From Anaerohalosphaeraceae bacterium (GTDB lineage Bacteria; Planctomycetota; Phycisphaerae; Sedimentisphaerales; UBA12454), in NCBI GenBank assembly GCA_021108375.1, contig JAIORA010000042.1, positions 73,046 to 137,045 on the forward strand: a stretch of 64,000 bases of DNA. Reading direction: 5' to 3'. Made by a program: the position numbers and the translations under genes. Below, in pieces: positions 138 to 62,518 of the stretch (positions are counted from its first letter, which is position 1; every line of letters begins with the position of its first letter). The notes under the pieces are model-generated. The model saw nothing but the letters and a program-made list of their open reading frames with translations. It had not been told where the DNA came from and ran no database searches.

Positions 138-971
138 TTATTTTCTGTTTTCTTCATCATCAAAAAATTCGTCAGTTACATCATTAACATCGTTCACATC
201 GCCCGGCAGATTACTATCATTCGCATCGTTAGCATCATCTTCGTACATATCCGCAATCTCATTAGCATCCGCGAATTCTGTCTTGATAAACTTATATGTC
301 AACTGCCTTGCCCTGTTGACCGCAATCGTTCTGAAAATAATATCCTCTTCAGGCACAACCATATTACCGCTAATGTCCTCTGCCATATTGGCAAAAGACA
401 ACGAAACCTTCACCGCCAGCGGCAGTGCCTTCTTGTCCCACTTCTGGCTAATCTCTTCGCCTTTAACAGTTTCAATTTTGAACATCGTAACCCCCGAACA
501 GACCGGCACAAACTTTTCGAGTTCCAGCGAGTCCTTGGTCTCATCAAGCATTTTATCTTCCAGCGAATATCCGCTATGCGCGCGGTATATTATCAGCCCG
601 TTTGCATCGACATTTGCCCTGCTCTGCCATACTATCCTGTCAAAAACCTGTTCTTTGCTGTCCTTATCGTAAATTTTATTTTCGATAATCATCTGCGCAC
701 TGTTATATCCGCCCTCTTCGATTTTGTTTTTTATGGTCATCATAATATCCGCTCCCGAAAGAGCCGTCCGGTCGATGTCCTCTGCGAGCCTCTGCAAAAT
801 TTCCATATCGAGCCTTCCGCTCTGGAGCTGGCGATTTACAGAATTGGCCGCCTGGCGCATACGGATATAAATCCCCCCCACCGCCGCCAGCAGCATCGCC
901 GAAATGGTCAACACCGCCATCAACTCCGCCAGCGTAAAACCGTAACAAGTTTTGTTATTCAGTGTTTTCAT
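138..971 (-). CDS. Minor pseudopilin (prepilin-type N-terminal cleavage/methylation domain) with an acidic D/N/E-rich C-terminal tail
   Basis: ORF 138..1205 trimmed to the internal ATG at 971. MKTLNNKTCYG|FTLAELMAVLTISAMLLAAV is a class III signal peptide with Glu at +5. It starts 4 nt after the stop of the upstream pseudopilin gene. Confidence 0.75.
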   Translation of the reverse strand: MKTLNNKTCYGFTLAELMAVLTISAMLLAAVGGIYIRMRQAANSVNRQLQSGRLDMEILQRLAEDIDRTALSGADIMMTIKNKIEEGGYNSAQMIIENKIYDKDSKEQVFDRIVWQSRANVDANGLIIYRAHSGYSLEDKMLDETKDSLELEKFVPVCSGVTMFKIETVKGEEISQKWDKKALPLAVKVSLSFANMAEDISGNMVVPEEDIIFRTIAVNRARQLTYKFIKTEFADANEIADMYEDDANDANDSNLPGDVNDVNDVTDEFFDDEENRK

Positions 972-975
972 TTCT

Positions 976-1626
976 TTAAGGCCCCATAACTGCCGGCCAA
1001 AATTCCTCTTCAGGAACATCACCCCAGGAATCGTAACCCGCAGGTGGCGGACCAAAATATTTCTCAAAGTCCTTCCACATATCAATCTCTGGGTCTGTGT
1101 CCGGCTCCTGATTCGGGTCAGCGTCCGGGTCTTCTTCCGGCTCCTGGTCAGGGTCGAGTTCGTCGAGCTGGTTTTCGTATTCTTTCTGCCTTTCCTTCTG
1201 CTCAAGAATCTGTTGGAGTTGCTTCTTGCTTAGGCTGCTGAGCCAGTGTTCCAGTTCCACTTTCTGGACTTGGCCTTCGGTATCGAAATATTCTGCAGAA
1301 CATACAGCCCGAATCCACATCCGGTTTGTTATTGGCTCATAAAACGATTCGATTCTCTTTTCCCAGTTAATGTCCGGGTGCATTTCGCTTTGGCCGTATT
1401 CAAGAATGTCGCTTACACTCTCCTGCGCCAAGATATTTTCCATATTCTCTCTGGATATTTCGAACGCCTCGGCCTTAGCCTGCCAGTTTATAACAGCATC
1501 ACTAATTCGTTTCATCACAACCATTACCGACCCTGCAATCATCGTCAGTATCACCATTGCTACGACAACTTCAATAAGGGTAAACCCTTTATCACCCCAA
1601 CAAATTTTATATCGTATTTTCCGCAT
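976..1626 (-). CDS. Minor pseudopilin (prepilin-type N-terminal domain) with a D/E/P-rich C-terminal region
   Basis: N-terminus MRKIRYKICWGDKG|FTLIEVVVAMVILTMIAG (G-FTLIE motif plus hydrophobic helix). Lies in the gsp cluster. Confidence 0.8.
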   Translation of the reverse strand: MRKIRYKICWGDKGFTLIEVVVAMVILTMIAGSVMVVMKRISDAVINWQAKAEAFEISRENMENILAQESVSDILEYGQSEMHPDINWEKRIESFYEPITNRMWIRAVCSAEYFDTEGQVQKVELEHWLSSLSKKQLQQILEQKERQKEYENQLDELDPDQEPEEDPDADPNQEPDTDPEIDMWKDFEKYFGPPPAGYDSWGDVPEEEFWPAVMGP

Positions 1627-12179: not shown

Positions 12180-12872
12180 CAATTCGGGTTTGTAGCCACA
12201 AGACTCAAAGACACAAAAGTTTAGACACGGATTAACACGGATTAAAAAACAAGATATAAAAACTGGATTCCCACTTTCGTGGGAATGACAGAGTCAGTAG
12301 GAGTGGGATGGTGTTTGCGGCTTCTATACGGTGCGAACGGGTTATTGAAATTTGCAAGCACAAACCGTTGGGCAGGCCACGACGGCTAAACGGCGAAATG
12401 TAAAACACAAACCATTCGCAGGGTTGAGATTGCCACGGCGATAAAACCGCCTCGCAATGACAAAGAGCAAAAGGTTATTCGACCCCTACGGGGTCGGGGT
12501 GGGGACGGTTCCTTTTTCCCCGAGTTTCGCTTCGCTCACACGGGGCTATTATTATTAAATCCCTACGGGATTTTTGTCCGGCCGCTGCCGCGGCTCGGCT
12601 TTTAATAGTGGGAAAGGGATAGCAAAATATGGAAGCACGAACCCCCAAGCAGACTTGGGGGCTAAACATTCGGCCTACGGCCGAAAAAGGACAACCCCAC
12701 ATTTGTAAATGTGGGGCTAACTTTTAAAAACAAGATTTCTCCGCTTCGGTCGAAATGACAAAATCGGTGTTGGCGTGAAAAACCATTTGAATGCACGAAC
12801 CCCCAAGCAAGCTTGGGGGCTAACCATTCGGCCTACGGCCGAAAAAGGGAAATCCCGATGAATCGGCTTACG
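12180..12872. repeat. Intergenic hairpin-module block
   Basis: Modules: GGATTCCCACTTTCGTGGGAATGACA, GATTGCC...GCAATGACA, CCGGCCGCTGCCGCGGCTCGGCT, CCCCCAAGCAGACTTGGGGG, CCCCACATTTGTAAATGTGGGG (12697-12718), TTCGGCCTACGGCCGAA x2. Confidence 0.85.
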
Positions 12873-15418: not shown

Positions 15419-15944
15419 ATAGTTTTGAGTTCTGAGTTTTGAGTTTTGAGTTTTGAGTTGAGGAATCGCCTTGCGGCGATAGAGATTTATTTAACCACGA
15501 ATTATTAAACACTGATTACACAGGCTTGTCCTGAGCGTAGCCGAAGGATTGCACAGATAAAAAAACAAGATACAAAAAAAATGGATACCCGCTTTCGCGA
15601 GTATGACAAAAGAAATTAACCACGAATGCACACGAATAAACACAAATGAAAAAAGAGATTGCCACGCTACGCTCGCAATGACAAAAAGTATTCCGGCCGC
15701 TCCCGCGGCTCGGCTACTATACGGTGGGAAAATGATAAACAATTTGCAGGTACCTCTGGGACAAGACCCAGGGGCTAATGGCGATGTGAACGGGTTATTA
15801 AAATTCGCAAACACGAACCCCGGCAAACAAGTTGCCGGGGCTAAATGACGAAATGAAAGATATAAACCGTTCGTAAACCAAAATCATTGTACAATCCGTA
15901 ATTAAACTGTATAATTCGGAGTTTACATTTGCCGGTTAAAACAA
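15419..15944. repeat. Intergenic hairpin-module block (reverse-complement orientation)
   Basis: AGTTTTGAG microsatellite (~15421-15463) starts 3 nt after the dus stop. Also GGATACCCGCTTTCGCG, GATTGCCACGCTACGCTCGCAATGACA, CCGGCCGCTCCCGCGGCTCGGCT and ...GGGGCTAA hairpins. Confidence 0.85.
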
Positions 15945-37628: not shown

Positions 37629-38021
37629 ATGAAAAAAATTCTACTAATCGTTTTGGCTTCGACAGCGATGATAACGATTTGCGGCTGTGCCAAAATCAAA
37701 CTCGGCGACCCCGTTGTGCTGCCCGGCCTAAACGAAACTCACGCCAAGATGACAAATTGTCTGCCGGAGCCAAAATTTCAAAATGGCGACAGGGTATCCT
37801 ATAAAATGCTGAGAGGCTCTACCGGCATAGTTATGCAGTGCGATTATAAATATATTCCACGTCTGAAATCATACTACTGCATTGTTGACTTCTATCCATC
37901 ATCCGCAATGCATTTGGACTTTTCAAAATTCGATAATTACGAACGTCGGTATGTTTATGAATATGAACTTCAACGCTCTTCGCTGGTTCCAAATAAATGG
38001 CAAATGGTAGGGGTGAATTGA
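37629..38021 (+). CDS. Lipoprotein, hypothetical
   Basis: MKKILLIVLASTAMITICGC carries a lipobox-like ITICGC. No family recognised. Confidence 0.6.
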   Translation: MKKILLIVLASTAMITICGCAKIKLGDPVVLPGLNETHAKMTNCLPEPKFQNGDRVSYKMLRGSTGIVMQCDYKYIPRLKSYYCIVDFYPSSAMHLDFSKFDNYERRYVYEYELQRSSLVPNKWQMVGVN

Positions 38022-38033
38022 TATAGGGAACCT

Positions 38034-39476
38034 TTAATTATATATCCCGATTTCGAGCCAATATTGCATTAGTTCGTATAAATCGTCAATATCCGTATCG
38101 CCATCGAAATCCATATCGGAAAATTCGCAGTAATCGTTGTAAATACCGCAATCTTCTCTTAGCCAATACGATGCGAATACTGAAAAGTCGGCTAAATTAT
38201 TTTTGCCGTCAGTATAAAGGTCAACTGGCGATATTTGCCAAGGCAGAATTGGATATGCACCCCAGGCCATAAACCAGTCAGCCTCATCGCCATCGGTATA
38301 TGAAAAATCCCAATCGATGAAACTGCTCTCTATTTTCATCTGCGCATCGGTTAAAGGTGTCCCCAAACCATTGTCCAGCCCTGCCGTATCAAGAAAGTAA
38401 CAATCAATAATACTGTTGCAGTAATCCCCCCCACAGAATGCGGCTTCACCACTAGCACCAACACTCCCATAGGATGTAACTTGGCTGGTTGAATAACAGT
38501 TTTTAATCAGGCCATCATTCCCATTCAACGAACAGAAGCCACCTTTGCGAGAATATCCGGTTACTGAGCCAGTTGAATAACAATTACTAATGGTACCAGC
38601 GTCATTTATACTGCATAATCCACTACCATCAATCTCATCTGCGATAACAGTTGTGTTAGAATAGCACTTGTTTATATTGCCACCTTTGTTATACCCACAA
38701 AGCCCACCAACGTTTTCTCTTCCTTTTGTAATACCTTTGGACAAACAATTTTGAATATTACCTTGTTCATTAAAGCCACAAATGCCGCCTATATTTTCAC
38801 TACCAACAACCTCTCCGTTTGAAGAGCAGTTCATGATGTAGCCTTCGAAATTATACCCACAAATAAAGCCGATATGTGAAGAAAAACTGTCATCAGGAGG
38901 AATTGTGCACCAATTATACCCACAACAGCCGCACTGCCAGTCACCACTATTGACGTAACCATCAGCGTAAGACTCTATGATTAGACCAAGATTATATCCG
39001 CAAAGTCCAGCAATAAAATATGAGGAATCGGTAATGTTCCAATTACCACCTGTGACATAAATATTATTTAGAGAGACTCGTGTAATAACACCGTTTTGTT
39101 GGAGTTGCCCAAAAAGACCAATATAGTCATTGCCGGTGTCATTTATATCAATAGTCAAATTTATTATAGAGCGATTGTTGCCATCAAATATACCATTAAA
39201 TGGTATTCCGTCAAAATCGCCGTAAGGACTCGTATCTGGTGCTATTACAGCGGTGGTGAAAGTGTGGTTTGCAAGGTTGATGTCGTTTATTAAAATGAAG
39301 CAATCGTTGTAATCATTAGTATCGGCGGCCAAATCAAGCAGGTCATTAGCATCGGCCAATTTATATGGGTCGGCCTCTGTTCCAGAGCCGCCAGAATACT
39401 TGGCGAAAGAGATGCCAGCAAAAAAGATAATAAACAGAAGGCTGATACAGGTCGTTTGACGGAAATTAACGTTCAT
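38034..39476 (-). CDS. Secreted GLUG-motif repeat protein with a dockerin/EF-hand-like C-terminus
   Basis: Signal peptide from the ATG at 39476 (AGGAG RBS). Repeated ...IGGICGFN / VGGLCGYN / GSGLCSIN... units every ~20 aa (GLUG-type). C-terminal DMDFDGDTDIDDLYELMQYWL. Confidence 0.65.
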   Translation of the reverse strand: MNVNFRQTTCISLLFIIFFAGISFAKYSGGSGTEADPYKLADANDLLDLAADTNDYNDCFILINDINLANHTFTTAVIAPDTSPYGDFDGIPFNGIFDGNNRSIINLTIDINDTGNDYIGLFGQLQQNGVITRVSLNNIYVTGGNWNITDSSYFIAGLCGYNLGLIIESYADGYVNSGDWQCGCCGYNWCTIPPDDSFSSHIGFICGYNFEGYIMNCSSNGEVVGSENIGGICGFNEQGNIQNCLSKGITKGRENVGGLCGYNKGGNINKCYSNTTVIADEIDGSGLCSINDAGTISNCYSTGSVTGYSRKGGFCSLNGNDGLIKNCYSTSQVTSYGSVGASGEAAFCGGDYCNSIIDCYFLDTAGLDNGLGTPLTDAQMKIESSFIDWDFSYTDGDEADWFMAWGAYPILPWQISPVDLYTDGKNNLADFSVFASYWLREDCGIYNDYCEFSDMDFDGDTDIDDLYELMQYWLEIGIYN

Positions 39477-39554
39477 TATAATTCTCCTGATAAATTCAAG
39501 AGTATTGTAATATGAAATCGCTATAATACAAGAGAAAAATCTATAAAATACCAA

Positions 39555-39760
39555 TACCGATTATTAAGTGCGCCGTTGTCATTTCGACTGGAATGAGCGA
39601 AGCGAATGGAGCGGAGAAATCTATCATTTTTAGATTCTTCGACTCCGCTCGGAATGACAGTAAAAAAATCCGTGAAATCAGTGTTTGAAAATATCCGGCC
39701 GCTCCCGCGGCTCGGCTGCTATGGAAAATAAAAAATTTTGTGCCTTCGTGGCTAAGAAAA
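39555..39760. repeat. Intergenic hairpin-module block 3' of ssrA
   Basis: ATTAAGTGCGCCGTTGTCATT (also at ~62220). GTCATTTCGAC...GGAGCGGAGAAATC. CCGGCCGCTCCCGCGGCTCGGCT. ATCCGTGAAATCAGTG. Confidence 0.8.
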
Positions 39761-39815
39761 TATGCCAAAACAAAAATGCGGAAATTATACGCATTGCCCC
39801 CCCGGCGACAAAAGA

Positions 39816-40167
39816 TGGAGGCGGGGGGATTCGAACCCCCGTCCCGAGACGTTTCAAAACAGGCTTCTACACGCTTAGTTACTTTTTTAAAATTTCGCAT
39901 CAACAAACGCTAAGTAACGAGCTTTCATATCAACTGAGTTCGTAGGTTTCGCATTATCGCCCCGAACAATTCAATAACGCTATCTCACATTTCGGCGCCC
40001 TTGCACAGCTGGTGAGAACAACCCTGCAGGACGGGCTGCTTAATTAAGCGGCCATTCGTAATTGGTTAGTGCCAATTAAAATTAGTGTCGGATTTTTAAC
40101 CAGGCCAACCGACATCCTGAGCGTGCAACCTATCCATCTACCCGTCCGGTCGAAGCCAATCGCCCCC
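39816..40167 (-). ncRNA. ssrA: tmRNA (SsrA)
   Basis: 5' GGGGGCGATTGGCTTCGACCGGACGGG and 3' GGACGGGGGTTCGAATCCCCCCGCCTCCA. The acceptor stem has the G3:U70 alanine identity pair. Tag reading frame ...GGC ACT AAC CAA TTA CGA ATG GCC GCT TAA TTA A gives a tentative tag (A)GTNQLRMAA. CCA is not encoded. Confidence 0.92.
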
Positions 40168-40282
40168 TGTCAACCTTACAAAACGGTTCTATACACAGGT
40201 GCTGATTATACATCGTTTAGCTTAAAAAATCTACTAAAAACCGCGGCACAGATTGGTACATAAATAGACCATCAAAAATTCA

Positions 40283-40311
40283 TTGATTGAGCCTGCCCAA
40301 TCCGATATAAT
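40283..40311 (+). promoter_or_regulatory. Near-consensus sigma70 promoter of the unassigned sRNA
   Basis: TTGATT (40283-40288), 17-nt spacer, TATAAT (40306-40311). Confidence 0.7.
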
Positions 40312-40316
40312 GGCCA

Positions 40317-40542
40317 GCGAAGGTGATTGCTGCGGTGTTTGACGGAGAGATTGGTATTTTTAGAACCTATACCACTTTTTCGGGAAGCCGAGACCGCTCG
40401 GATCGAACAAGCCTGCCTGACAGGACGTTCGGACGATGGAACGGGCTACCCACCTGATTATCAGGGTTCGAAAATAGTCTCTTATCGGCATATGTGGCGT
40501 TGCTGGCGTGAATGAAAGGGCCTGGAAACGGGCCCTTTTTTT
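40317..40542 (+). ncRNA. Unassigned structured sRNA (~225 nt), possibly 6S-like
   Basis: Bounded by the promoter above and by the terminator GGGCCUG-GAAA-CGGGCCC plus U7 (40518-40542). No plausible ORF. The 5' and 3' arms pair by hand into an interrupted rod: CCAGCGA/UUGCUGG, GCUGC/GUGGC, GAGAGA/UCUCUU, UAUUUU/AAAAUA, AACCUAUA/UAUCAGGGUU. Confidence 0.55.
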
Positions 40543-40736
40543 CCGGCTCCCGACCGGTTGGTTTGGGAAACTTAACGAACCCTGAGCCGGGCTGGACACG
40601 GTCACAGCACCGCTGCCCACATCGGGCGAACCCGGCTCAAAAGGTTCGACAAAAAGTATCTACACATACAATCGTCCGAGATGGGAAAAATCACTAATAC
40701 TTTTTGCCTCCACTGACAACTGTATGTCAGTTGCGC

Positions 40737-40769
40737 AAAAAAAAGCCGGGCATTATGAAAATACCCGGC
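40737..40769 (-). terminator. Intrinsic terminator of the HD cassette
   Basis: Minus strand reads GCCGGG-TATTTTCATAATG-CCCGGC followed by T8. It lies ~40 nt after the HD gene stop. Confidence 0.7.
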
Positions 40770-40807
40770 CCTATGTGTTCCAACTTAATAAGTGAATTTT
40801 GTATAGT

Positions 40808-42223
40808 TTATACTATGTGCCAATTATTCATTTCATTTTTAATTTTTTCTATTTTTGTTAAATCCTCATTTATATCTATGGCGAGATATATTCTGGATAA
40901 GATAAACTGCTGGCCTGAAAATTTAGATATAAAACAATCTTTTCTATCCATAAGAGATTCTGGGGGATTGCCACTGCCTTTAAAAATTTTTACAATTTCT
41001 CTATAAACCTTTTCGTCATTCCTTTCGTCAGCTTGCTTGTTTTCCCTAGGAGTTCTGCGGCTTTCTTCTTTTTCAACATTATGTGTTTTTTCAGATAACA
41101 TAAATTGACCAGGAATAATACCGTATTGGGTAGACAATTGGGCTATCTTGTCTCTAAAGTTACGCCTTAAAGCTTTTCCATCGTGATTGTCAGACCTATC
41201 GCTCCAAAAAGCAACTTCTTTTAACAATTTAGGTGGTCTACGGTAAACTATGGAATTCGCCAGAATCCGGATCAATTTATCGGCTTCGTCATCCCCCTCG
41301 TGTTTCACAGCTTGTTGTATAATTCTATCAATATAAGCGTCTGTAAAGTCAAACAACTTTTCCGTCCTAAAAATATCTTTGATTTTATCAGCACCGTGCA
41401 TTTCATATCCACCTTTAAGATACAACCTTTTAAGCAAATGAGAACAAGCCTCTTCCATGCCACAGGTTGTTTTATGGAAATACACTGTACGGTGCATGGA
41501 AAATCGGGCCATCAGGAATTGCTCTGCGGCCGGTATCGCTTTTTCAGAAAAACATACAATCTTTTCACCGTCAAATTTACTAATTTCAATATTGTTTAGC
41601 AGGTAATTCATATCAACTTTTCCGTATGGCACACCAGTAGCATACGAATCACGTAGCAGATAATCCATTCTGTCTAAATCCAAGCTACTTGTAACAAATG
41701 ATGAGAGTTCCGTATCCGAACCAGTGAAAATATCCGCTACTTTTATAGCTCTTTTCTTACTTCCAATAGCCGTCAATATGTCATTTTGGCATTGCAACAC
41801 TATTCTGCCCGTTTCCTCATGTTTGGGATAGCCAAATTCTTCAACATCAATCTCAGTTTTAGGCTCCAAGTACTCCTCTGTGAGCGTTGTCTTCCACATT
41901 CGTTCTACTAAATGAGAATATGGATAATGCCCAATATCATGAAGCAAAGCTGCAAGCTTTAAATTTTCTTTTGTAGGTTCGTCAAGTTCCAATTCACTAG
42001 ATTTTTGATCAAGAACCCGTTTCATTATTGCAAGAGTTCCTATGCTATGAGAAAATCTTGTGTGGGTTGCATTGGGGTATGTAAGGTGGCTCAGTTGCAA
42101 CTGCTTAACATTTCGAAGCCGCTGAAAAGATGGAGTGTCAATAACTCTCCATTCTAAATCGGTCAGGTGAATATCATTATGTATGGAATCTACAATTATT
42201 CTGTTATCACTGGATGAGGCCAT
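40808..42223 (-). CDS. SAMHD1/COG1078-type HD-domain phosphohydrolase (putative dNTP triphosphohydrolase)
   Basis: Metal-binding motifs RFSHSIGT, LHDIGHYPYSH and LDLDRMDYLLRDSYATGVPYG, then ...HRTVYFHKT.... AAGGAG RBS. The start overlaps the upstream ORF by 17 nt. Confidence 0.8.
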   Translation of the reverse strand: MASSSDNRIIVDSIHNDIHLTDLEWRVIDTPSFQRLRNVKQLQLSHLTYPNATHTRFSHSIGTLAIMKRVLDQKSSELELDEPTKENLKLAALLHDIGHYPYSHLVERMWKTTLTEEYLEPKTEIDVEEFGYPKHEETGRIVLQCQNDILTAIGSKKRAIKVADIFTGSDTELSSFVTSSLDLDRMDYLLRDSYATGVPYGKVDMNYLLNNIEISKFDGEKIVCFSEKAIPAAEQFLMARFSMHRTVYFHKTTCGMEEACSHLLKRLYLKGGYEMHGADKIKDIFRTEKLFDFTDAYIDRIIQQAVKHEGDDEADKLIRILANSIVYRRPPKLLKEVAFWSDRSDNHDGKALRRNFRDKIAQLSTQYGIIPGQFMLSEKTHNVEKEESRRTPRENKQADERNDEKVYREIVKIFKGSGNPPESLMDRKDCFISKFSGQQFILSRIYLAIDINEDLTKIEKIKNEMNNWHIV

Positions 42224-42692
42224 ACTCCTTGAGTTCTCCTAAAGCACTATGCACCTCTTCATTGCTAAAAACTTTGTTGCTTTTTTCTAATACATTAACC
42301 ATTTCAGGAATACTTGAATTGGAGACTTGCCCTCTTGAAATCAAGAAATGTAGTGAAGCCAATAATTCGATTTTTTTTGCCAGAGTTTCTTTGTTTTCTT
42401 CCGCAAACATTGGCCTAATTTTACTTAGTTTAGAAATTGTAACCCCATCAAGCGACCAATTTTCAAGTTCATCATCTGTCGTCTGAGTAGCAATGCTATA
42501 ACAATCATCTGCCAAGGGGCTACAATATGGCCCTCTCAAATACCACCTATAATGATAACCCAAGTTAGTACCAGCAGCCTGTATCAGATAAATAGCTTTT
42601 TGCGATATGAGCCTATCCTGAAAAGAATCTATACCAAATTCCAAACCAAGCGTATCAGCCGCTAATTTGATTACAACCTGCCTCTTGTCCAT
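42207..42692 (-). CDS. Panacea (DUF4065/SocA)- or YwgA-like small protein
   Basis: 161 aa. The segment DRLISQKAIYLIQAAGTNLGYHYRWYLRGPYCSPLADDCY resembles the DUF4065 pattern (KLQKLLY...f..w..GP..p.ly). GGAG RBS 7 nt upstream. Translationally coupled to the HD gene. Confidence 0.5.
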   Translation of the reverse strand: MDKRQVVIKLAADTLGLEFGIDSFQDRLISQKAIYLIQAAGTNLGYHYRWYLRGPYCSPLADDCYSIATQTTDDELENWSLDGVTISKLSKIRPMFAEENKETLAKKIELLASLHFLISRGQVSNSSIPEMVNVLEKSNKVFSNEEVHSALGELKEYGLIQ

Positions 42693-42902: not shown

Positions 42903-43991
42903 TTAGCTTATTTCCTCGTCAATCCAGCCTAATAATTCTTTAAGGTCGTCAAGGTTAATATCGCCCATATGAGCGATTCTAAAAGCCTGTTCTTTGAGCT
43001 TGCCGTAACCGTTACCGAAAATAGTGTTATGTTTTTCCTGAATCGCTTTAATCGTACCAGCAACATCGATGCCGCGAGTGTTCTTAATCGTCGTCAAAGT
43101 ATTGGAGGCATACTGCTCATCGCAGAACAATTCAAATTTTTCCTTCGCCCAACTGCGAACAAAATCGGCCATCTCAGCGTGTCTCTTCCAGACGTTTTCC
43201 ATACCCTCTGCGAGCAATTTTTTGCACTGGTAGTTGAGTGCCATAATGTGCGGTATTACCGGAGTTGTCGGGGTCTGGTTCTTTGCTCCGCTCTTGGCAA
43301 ATTCCTGGAAGTCAAAGTAGTAGCCTCTGCCGGTAACGGTTTTACTCTTTGCCATCGCACGGTCGCTGACAGCAAAAACTGCCAGTCCAGGCGGAATCGC
43401 AAAAGCCTTCTGCACGGAAGCAAAAACTACATCCCAGCCGAGCTTGTCAAATTCCAGCGGCAGGCCAACCATACCACTTACCGAATCGACCAAAACCAGC
43501 ACGTCGGGGTATTTAGCCTTCATCATTTCGCTGATTTCATAAACCGGGTTGGTCAGGCCGGTAGAAGTTTCGTTGTGAACGAGTGAGATAGCGGCATATT
43601 TGCCATCGGCGAGCTTTTTGTCAATCATATCAACAGTAATCGGCTGGCCCCATTCAACTTTTAGCTCTTCGACATTTCTGCCGCAAGCCCTGGCAACCGT
43701 TGCGAACTTGTCGCTGAAAGCTCCGCACATTGTGCAAAGAATTGTTTCATCGTGGTCGATACAATTGCGAATACTGCCTTCCCAGATACCTGATGCTGAT
43801 GAAGTGCTCAGGAACACGCTCTGTGTGGTTGACAGAAGCTCTTTGAGCATCGTTACCGTTTCTTCGTGAAGCTGAGAATACTCTTTGCCACGATGGCCAA
43901 GTGAATATCTGCTGAGTTGCTCCAACACCTCAGGCAGCATATGTACCGGCCCGGGTATGAAGAGCTTCGGAGGATTTTTCCAATCTACCAT
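42903..43991 (-). CDS. Class V aminotransferase (serine-pyruvate / alanine-glyoxylate / phosphoserine aminotransferase family)
   Basis: 362 aa. FIPGPV N-terminus, ...HNETSTG..., ...DSVSG..., SVQKAF (PLP-Lys region). Confidence 0.8.
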   Translation of the reverse strand: MVDWKNPPKLFIPGPVHMLPEVLEQLSRYSLGHRGKEYSQLHEETVTMLKELLSTTQSVFLSTSSASGIWEGSIRNCIDHDETILCTMCGAFSDKFATVARACGRNVEELKVEWGQPITVDMIDKKLADGKYAAISLVHNETSTGLTNPVYEISEMMKAKYPDVLVLVDSVSGMVGLPLEFDKLGWDVVFASVQKAFAIPPGLAVFAVSDRAMAKSKTVTGRGYYFDFQEFAKSGAKNQTPTTPVIPHIMALNYQCKKLLAEGMENVWKRHAEMADFVRSWAKEKFELFCDEQYASNTLTTIKNTRGIDVAGTIKAIQEKHNTIFGNGYGKLKEQAFRIAHMGDINLDDLKELLGWIDEEIS

Positions 43992-62215: not shown

Positions 62216-62518
62216 TTTATTAAGTGCGCCGTTGTCATTGCGAAAGATACAAATCATTCGCAACGCCGTGGCAATCTCGTTTTAAATTAACCTTTCACAT
62301 CGCATAGAAACCGAGCGACGTAAGTCGCCGGAATATTTAGCCCCCGGGTCTTGTCCCGGGGGTACCTACGCATTGTTTATCCCGTATTTACCGTAGGGGC
62401 GATTCGTGAATCGCCCCCTTGTCATTTCCGCGAAAGCGGGAATCCATCTTTTTACTTTTAGGTTTTTACTTTTTTAAATCTGTGAAATCAGTGTCTAAAT
62501 AATTCGTGTTTGCTTCCA
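62216..62518. repeat. Intergenic hairpin-module block
   Basis: ATTAAGTGCGCCGTTGTCATTGCG. TTAGCCCCCGGGTCTTGTCCCGGGGGT. GGGGCGATTCGTGAATCGCCCC. TTCCGCGAAAGCGGGAA. ATCTGTGAAATCAGTG. Confidence 0.85.

Follow-up and report, generated by a model that had tools for sequence, protein, structure and literature searches.

The DNA that we analyzed, a 64-kb window from the genome of an Anaerohalosphaeraceae bacterium (Planctomycetota, Phycisphaerae), carries an ssrS gene that very probably encodes a canonical 6S RNA, arranged as a free-standing unit and expected to behave as an open-promoter mimic, a reading to which we give a probability of roughly 0.93. Membership in the family rests on sequence and structure. 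A scan of the whole 64-kb window against Rfam 15 at gathering thresholds returned four matches, namely tmRNA, two tRNAs and 6S/SsrS (RF00013), and the window thus holds a single 6S copy. The 6S match found with cmscan, at 40324-40504 on the plus strand, scores 68.2 bits (gathering score 46.4; E-value 2.4e-11) and covers model positions 1-187 of 187, meaning that it is not truncated, and its core length fits the range of the family, about 180-200 nt. No other Rfam family was matched over the 6S interval at E ≤ 1 in a permissive scan of 39300-41000, and the Ms1 and 6S-Flavo models gave no match there, either at the gathering threshold in the window or at E ≤ 1 in 39300-41000. An earlier note on this DNA had guessed a 6S-type RNA from a rod-like fold and had proposed cmscan with RF00013 as a check. 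The search was positive, and the full-length match, together with covariation with the closest relative and with four other phyla, confirms the guess; the description of the sRNA as an orphan was wrong, as the RNA belongs to a known family.

The window 6S belongs unambiguously to RF00013, although as a divergent member. We regard it as divergent because, at 68 bits, it scores below the other 6S RNAs retrieved in this study (82-101 bits) and because cmscan flags several non-canonical pairs in its distal stem; the departure of this stem from the consensus is the reason for the lower score. The parts of the gene, all on the plus strand, are as follows.

40283-40311, plus strand: sigma-70-type promoter of the 6S gene (10/12 match; hexamers kept in the closest relative)
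40322-40366, plus strand: 5′ strand of the closing stem, with small bulges and internal loops (pairs with 40466-40504)
40324-40504, plus strand: 6S RNA (ssrS) core as delimited by RF00013, 181 nt (Rfam match)
40367-40381, plus strand: 5′ strand of the central bubble, CUAUACCACUUUUUC, 15 nt unpaired (MFE, centroid and cross-phylum consensus)
40382-40451, plus strand: internal and apical stem (40382-40415 pairs with 40421-40451)
40452-40465, plus strand: 3′ strand of the central bubble, with a small hairpin within a conserved motif
40466-40504, plus strand: 3′ strand of the closing stem (MFE, helix list)
40518-40542, plus strand: intrinsic terminator of the 6S gene (sequence read directly; hairpin fold)

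In the MFE structure, 40318-40512 forms a single long helix, interrupted in places and opened by a large bubble at its centre, and the centroid structure agrees with it. When the whole predicted transcript (40313-40545) is folded it reaches z = -4.7, better than all 200 shuffles, bearing out the rod that had been drawn by eye. The layout is that of 6S RNA, with a closing stem, a central bubble of ~15 nt and an apical stem, and the same layout is seen in the cross-phylum consensus described below. The apical loop is CCUGA (40416-40420), and the small hairpin on the 3′ side of the bubble, CCUGA-UUA-UCAGG at 40453-40465, lies within the motif ACCCACCUG...CAGGGUUC. As for the helices that the earlier note had paired by hand, GCUGC/GUGGC, GAGAGA/UCUCUU, UAUUUU/AAAAUA, AACC/GGUU and the apical CCUG-CCUGA-CAGG were reproduced, but a local CCGAG-ACCG-CUCGG hairpin and the outermost helix, CCAGCGA/UUGCUGG, were not favoured. 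The local CCGAG/CUCGG hairpin competes with pairs across the rod, and we prefer the latter because pair 40394/40439 shows a compensatory change, from C-G in the window to U-A in the closest relative. CCAGCGA/UUGCUGG starts 3 nt past the -10 element, and therefore probably lies partly upstream of the transcription start.

The closest available relative, L101 (GCA_024275735.1), has an LptD that is 72% identical to that of the window and is the sole source of a clade-level 6S homologue that we recovered. This homologue scores 88 bits and sits at a contig edge with its 3′ end cut off, and for this reason comparative support stops short of the outermost closing stem and the terminator. Over the 176 alignable nt there are 28 substitutions, 15 of them in 55 unpaired positions (27%) and 13 in 121 paired positions (11%). 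The 13 paired-position substitutions affect eight pairs, all eight of which stay standard pairs with none broken, five by double compensatory change: 40350/40478 in the closing stem, and 40394/40439, 40406/40429, 40408/40427 and 40414/40422 in the internal/apical stem, which holds four of the five. The closing-stem pairs that are altered yet still paired in L101 are 40338/40488, 40361/40470 and the doubly changed 40350/40478. The structure is kept in evolution by compensatory change, and the check for covariation among homologues that had been proposed earlier came out in favour of the fold.

Sequence-only searching proved too weak for this RNA, since an nhmmer search of 100 fetched loci, with the window 6S as query, gave matches only in contigs of the same organism. 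A bubble pattern taken from the window 6S, TACCCACCTG-N6-CAGGGTTC, was searched in a species-representative genome collection and gave 18 genome matches, of which six are Rfam 6S RNAs at 82-101 bits, coming from Omnitrophota, Actinomycetota, Bacillota and a deltaproteobacterium. The other 12 matches, including a Gemmataceae locus, were rejected as chance, scoring only 8-16 bits or nothing with R1, our own 6S covariance model (the window copy scores 123 bits with R1 by construction). The consensus of the window copy and the six confirmed RNAs is a canonical 6S structure of 48 pairs, 22-23 of them with compensatory changes, and none of 500 shuffles reached the pairing values observed for this cross-phylum set. 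In alignment A2, made of the window copy, the six Rfam-confirmed RNAs and L101, 90.5% of cells pair against at most 48.5% in slid controls and 23 pairs are changed on both sides, values to be read knowing that the set was retrieved by a query-derived pattern and A2 was fitted to a model of the same sequences, so that both lean to agreement. For that reason, the pairwise comparison of the window with L101 is the cleaner evidence.

Columns invariant in the seven sequences include CU.C (closing stem), GA.CC ahead of the bubble, GGA behind it, and UACCCACCUG/CAGGGUUC. The last two made up the search pattern (18 nt) and are invariant by ascertainment, while CU.C, GA.CC and GGA are independent of it. 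The conserved elements that flank the bubble are present in the window 6S, which together with L101 has GAACC where GAGCC is usual before the bubble, turning a G-U pair into A-U.

Set beside the 6S/SsrS RNAs of RF00013 (E. coli SsrS; B. subtilis 6S-1/BsrA), the window RNA is alike in its full-length match with a ~181-nt core, its stem-bubble-stem architecture, its bubble-flanking motifs, the hairpin on the 3′ bubble strand and its compensatory substitutions. It is unlike them in the GAACC that it shares with L101, in a distal stem that is off consensus, and in being a free-standing gene that has a promoter and a terminator of its own and forms a head-to-head pair with ssrA, whereas in many Proteobacteria and some Firmicutes 6S adjoins ygfA (PMC9130861). 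The 6S RNAs from Omnitrophota MAGs (L008 2325-2510; L015 2200-2387) carry the exact 24-position bubble motif, TACCCACCUG-N6-CAGGGUUC, and the same overall fold, but their Rfam scores are much higher (96-101 bits), and beyond the conserved motifs their primary sequence has little in common with that of the window RNA; an nhmmer search started from the window sequence misses them. Omnitrophota are generally placed near Planctomycetota.

A structured RNA could share the 6S rod and still act differently, as an Ms1-like binder of core polymerase or as a base-pairing sRNA. Ms1 of Actinobacteria is also rod-like with a central bubble and also binds RNA polymerase (PMC9130861), and a different mode of action would sit well with the moderate Rfam score of the window 6S (68 bits, below other 6S matches), with the non-canonical pairs that cmscan reports in the distal stem, and with a 2014 screen that, as one paper cites it, detected no 6S in two Planctomycetia genomes (PMC5673643). 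However, the match is full length and exceeds the curated cut-off by 22 bits, the best-conserved 6S signature, which surrounds the bubble (GAaCC, GGGA and ACCCACCUG...CAGGGUUC), is intact, and no Ms1 or other family is matched at E ≤ 1. The size is also wrong for Ms1, which is roughly 300 nt long with extra hairpins at its 5′ and 3′ ends and binds core polymerase without sigma (PMC9130861), while the window RNA has a core of 181 nt with no such hairpins except the terminator and matches 6S, not Ms1. We consider this alternative improbable and keep to the reading of a canonical 6S RNA.

A coding origin for the conservation is more improbable still. Three ORFs overlap the 6S gene, one of 44 aa (GTG), one of 62 aa (TTG) and one of 86 aa on the minus strand (GTG). 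The 44-aa and the minus-strand 86-aa ORFs gain stop codons in L101, which leaves the 62-aa ORF at 40327-40515 (plus strand) as the possible source of a small protein, with the RNA fold being incidental. Its frame is open across 55 alignable codons in L101, but substitutions fall 6/11/11 at codon positions 1/2/3 and the third-position excess is absent, 17 of the 55 residues differ (69% amino acid identity at 84% nucleotide identity), the start is a TTG with no obvious ribosome-binding sequence seen ahead, and the conservation of base pairs, with all eight substituted pairs kept, explains the same substitutions. With two ORFs gaining stops and the third lacking a coding-type substitution pattern, we rejected the coding hypothesis, in agreement with the earlier statement that no credible ORF lies between the promoter and the terminator.

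Both of those signals are present as had been claimed. The promoter consists of a -35 element TTGATT (40283-40288), a spacer of 17 nt and a -10 element TATAAT (40306-40311), and from this spacing the transcription start is predicted at about 40316-40319, ~7 nt past the -10. It is one of three sites with the top score of 10/12 in 39300-41300, a region in which 11 promoter-like sites were observed vs 4.2 expected; because such sites are common there, the promoter match alone is weak evidence. Between L101 and the window the promoter hexamers are identical at 12/12 positions and the spacer is changed at 6/17. The terminator has a 7-bp stem, GGGCCUG-GAAA-CGGGCCC (40518-40535), followed by T7 (40536-40542), and its hairpin has a folding energy of -21.4 kcal/mol (z = -5.4), which none of 200 shuffles equalled. 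The listing of a simple terminator scanner did not include it. From these sequence signals we infer that the 6S gene is transcribed; the predicted primary transcript, terminator hairpin included, would be about 223 nt long.

The neighbours of the 6S gene, all on the minus strand, are as follows.

39813-40167, minus strand: tmRNA (ssrA), divergent neighbour of 6S (Rfam 157.7 bits; ARAGORN)
40570-40650, minus strand: uncatalogued structured RNA of ~80 nt, between the 6S terminator and the HD gene (covariation)
40808-42223, minus strand: gene for an HD + HD_assoc_2 protein, 471 aa (weak PADLOC dGTPase hit, 1e-8)
42207-42692, minus strand: gene for a 161-aa protein (PADLOC: weak match, 3e-8, to the DarG C-terminal part)

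The 6S gene and ssrA are transcribed away from each other, as the earlier note had said, and share an intergenic region of about 150 nt. The tag peptide encoded by the tmRNA is GTNQLRMAA; the same tag is found in L101, which carries the same head-to-head 6S/tmRNA arrangement. On the minus strand, a perfect TATAAT (40205-40210) precedes the 5′ end of the mature tmRNA by ~38 nt. It is part of a block, TGATTATACA, in which the window and L101 do not differ, and has only a weak -35 (TAGATT). This TATAAT is likely the -10 element of the ssrA promoter, and the 6S and tmRNA promoters would therefore stand back-to-back, about 70 nt apart.

We looked for the 6S gene in relatives using two protein anchors. 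The LptD-like protein of the window (1013 aa) has homologues that carry the labels Sedimentisphaerales, Phycisphaerae or Planctomycetes. Among the loci anchored on LptD, relatives L102-L110 (51-58% identity) have other genes at that position and gave no 6S, leaving L101 as the only one of these loci with a 6S. Likewise, no 6S was found with model R1 in 80 metagenome loci anchored on the aminotransferase gene (42903-43991), where only the DUF1015-aminotransferase pair is common with the window and synteny ends at the aminotransferase. The lack of a 6S in these ~90 other Sedimentisphaerales-like loci means that the position is not syntenic, and says nothing on presence or absence of the gene. 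In L052, whose aminotransferase is 77% identical, a tmRNA (758-1110, minus strand) lies ~3 kb upstream of the DUF1015-aminotransferase pair. No 6S was found near this tmRNA, and the 6S/tmRNA adjacency is therefore confined to the immediate lineage of the window.

A GLUG-motif protein gene (38034-39554, minus strand) and a 130-aa gene (37629-38021, plus strand) are located between the tmRNA 3′ end and the conserved 86-aa/LptD genes in the window. Both are absent from L101, where ~150 nt (679-831) lead from the tmRNA to the homologue of the 86-aa gene, and the comparison suggests gene gain or loss at the ssrA 3′ end (window 37629-39554). A duplicated tmRNA 3′ end, the signature of an island attachment site, was sought in the window and none was found. 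The tmRNA 3′ flank (39575-39670, 39694-39722) includes an imperfect palindromic element, GTCATTTCGACTGGAATGAGCGAAGCGAATGGAGCGGAG ... CGACTCCGCTCGGAATGACAG, and a GC-rich segment of 24-29 nt that recurs at 15692-15720 and 12577-12600; a 23-nt piece at 39561-39583 is found again at 62217-62239. These repeats may be dispersed intergenic repeats.

On the downstream side, the earlier note had left room for a cis or trans role of the sRNA for the HD cassette, and we find no support for this. The 161-aa and HD genes overlap and form a two-gene operon (40808-42692, minus strand), and the HD gene has its own terminator (40772-40742, minus strand). The ~190 nt downstream of the cassette (40585-40774, minus strand) have a homologue that starts ~30 nt past the aminotransferase stop in at least five relatives, and the cassette is absent at that position from at least five relatives. 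Since the flank directly follows the aminotransferase in the relatives, the cassette has been inserted between that gene and the 3′ flank which it had ancestrally. A link to the cassette, with the 6S RNA as a cis-acting antisense or 3′-end element or as a dedicated trans regulator, is thus highly unlikely: proximity speaks for it, with the 6S terminator ending 266 nt from the HD stop codon and the genes convergent, but the HD gene is terminated on its own and separated from 6S by another conserved RNA element, the cassette is an insertion missing in relatives, and 6S RNAs across phyla occur without such an HD neighbour. Rather than being a partner of the 6S RNA, the cassette arrived by recent insertion, and it may be a defence or toxin-antitoxin-like cassette.

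The RNA element that separates the two, at 40570-40650, is convergent with the 6S gene and is conserved downstream of the aminotransferase in the loci of 14 relatives, with copies that include the following.

L036 4775-4853, L039 9726-9804, L027 11880-11958 and L030 6884-6962: copies of the ~80-nt RNA, with others besides
L042 11229-11311, L022 2341-2421, L028 4978-5059 and L021 1554-1630: further copies of the ~80-nt RNA

The structure is a three-way junction with two hairpins, closed by an outer stem that varies in sequence from lineage to lineage; one hairpin has an invariant UGCUGUGA loop, and after it come single-stranded GUCCAAC and a U-run. Some 7 nt upstream of the RNA lies a -10-like GATACT. 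In an alignment fitted to a model of this RNA (R2), 95.8% of cells pair against at most 46.5% in slid controls, and 18 of 24 pairs are changed on both sides in the same model-fitted alignment. The model-based alignment was used instead of a MAFFT-based consensus fold, which was uninformative with the variable stems misaligned. No Rfam match was found at E ≤ 1 for the window copy or at E ≤ 10 for the L036 copy. The element is not a 5′ leader, because a convergent 92-aa ORF follows it in relatives. This ~80-nt RNA is a more novel object in the stretch than the 6S gene, and the more useful by-product of the analysis.

Studied 6S RNAs bind the housekeeping-sigma holoenzyme in an open-promoter-like form, and transcription of a short pRNA rearranges the RNA and frees the enzyme (PMC9130861). 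All the features of sequence and structure on which this behaviour depends are present in the window RNA. By homology with the RNAs studied in E. coli and B. subtilis, the bubble together with the helices on either side would imitate an open promoter, and the RNA would sit in the active-site cleft of the housekeeping-sigma polymerase, sequestering the enzyme when the RNA accumulates. As nucleotide levels rise, the polymerase would copy the 5′ bubble strand into pRNA, which would rearrange the 6S fold and release the polymerase. By the same analogy, pRNA synthesis would start in the 5′ bubble strand (40367-40381), and a candidate pRNA template is formed by this strand and the closing-stem strand next to it, about 40340-40381. 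Polymerase binding and pRNA synthesis by the window 6S are in this way expected from its likeness to the 6S RNAs of these two bacteria.

According to a planctomycete genome paper, the 2014 cross-phylum survey detected no 6S in Pirellula staleyi or Rhodopirellula baltica, and Thermogutta likewise yielded none (PMC5673643). Our literature search on 6S in Phycisphaerae gave nothing relevant, and we found no experimentally studied 6S RNA from Planctomycetota in the literature. Because the survey, as cited there, saw no 6S in those two members of the same phylum (PMC5673643), a clear 6S in a Phycisphaerae lineage is mildly informative. It is possible, though we hold it to be doubtful, that the window and L101 represent a Phycisphaerae 6S lineage in which the 6S/tmRNA pair is a lineage-specific, co-regulated module of stable RNAs. 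If that were true, 6S would be unevenly distributed within Planctomycetota, or in places too divergent to detect. What is new here is one more divergent 6S sequence; the family is known, and since any Rfam-based annotation pipeline would find the gene, the finding has little importance beyond correct annotation. It does add a divergent 6S RNA, with a close relative for covariation, from a phylum without an experimental 6S study. For the organism itself, the analogy with studied 6S RNAs suggests that an uncultured anaerobic planctomycete would have the standard RNA-based brake on housekeeping transcription.
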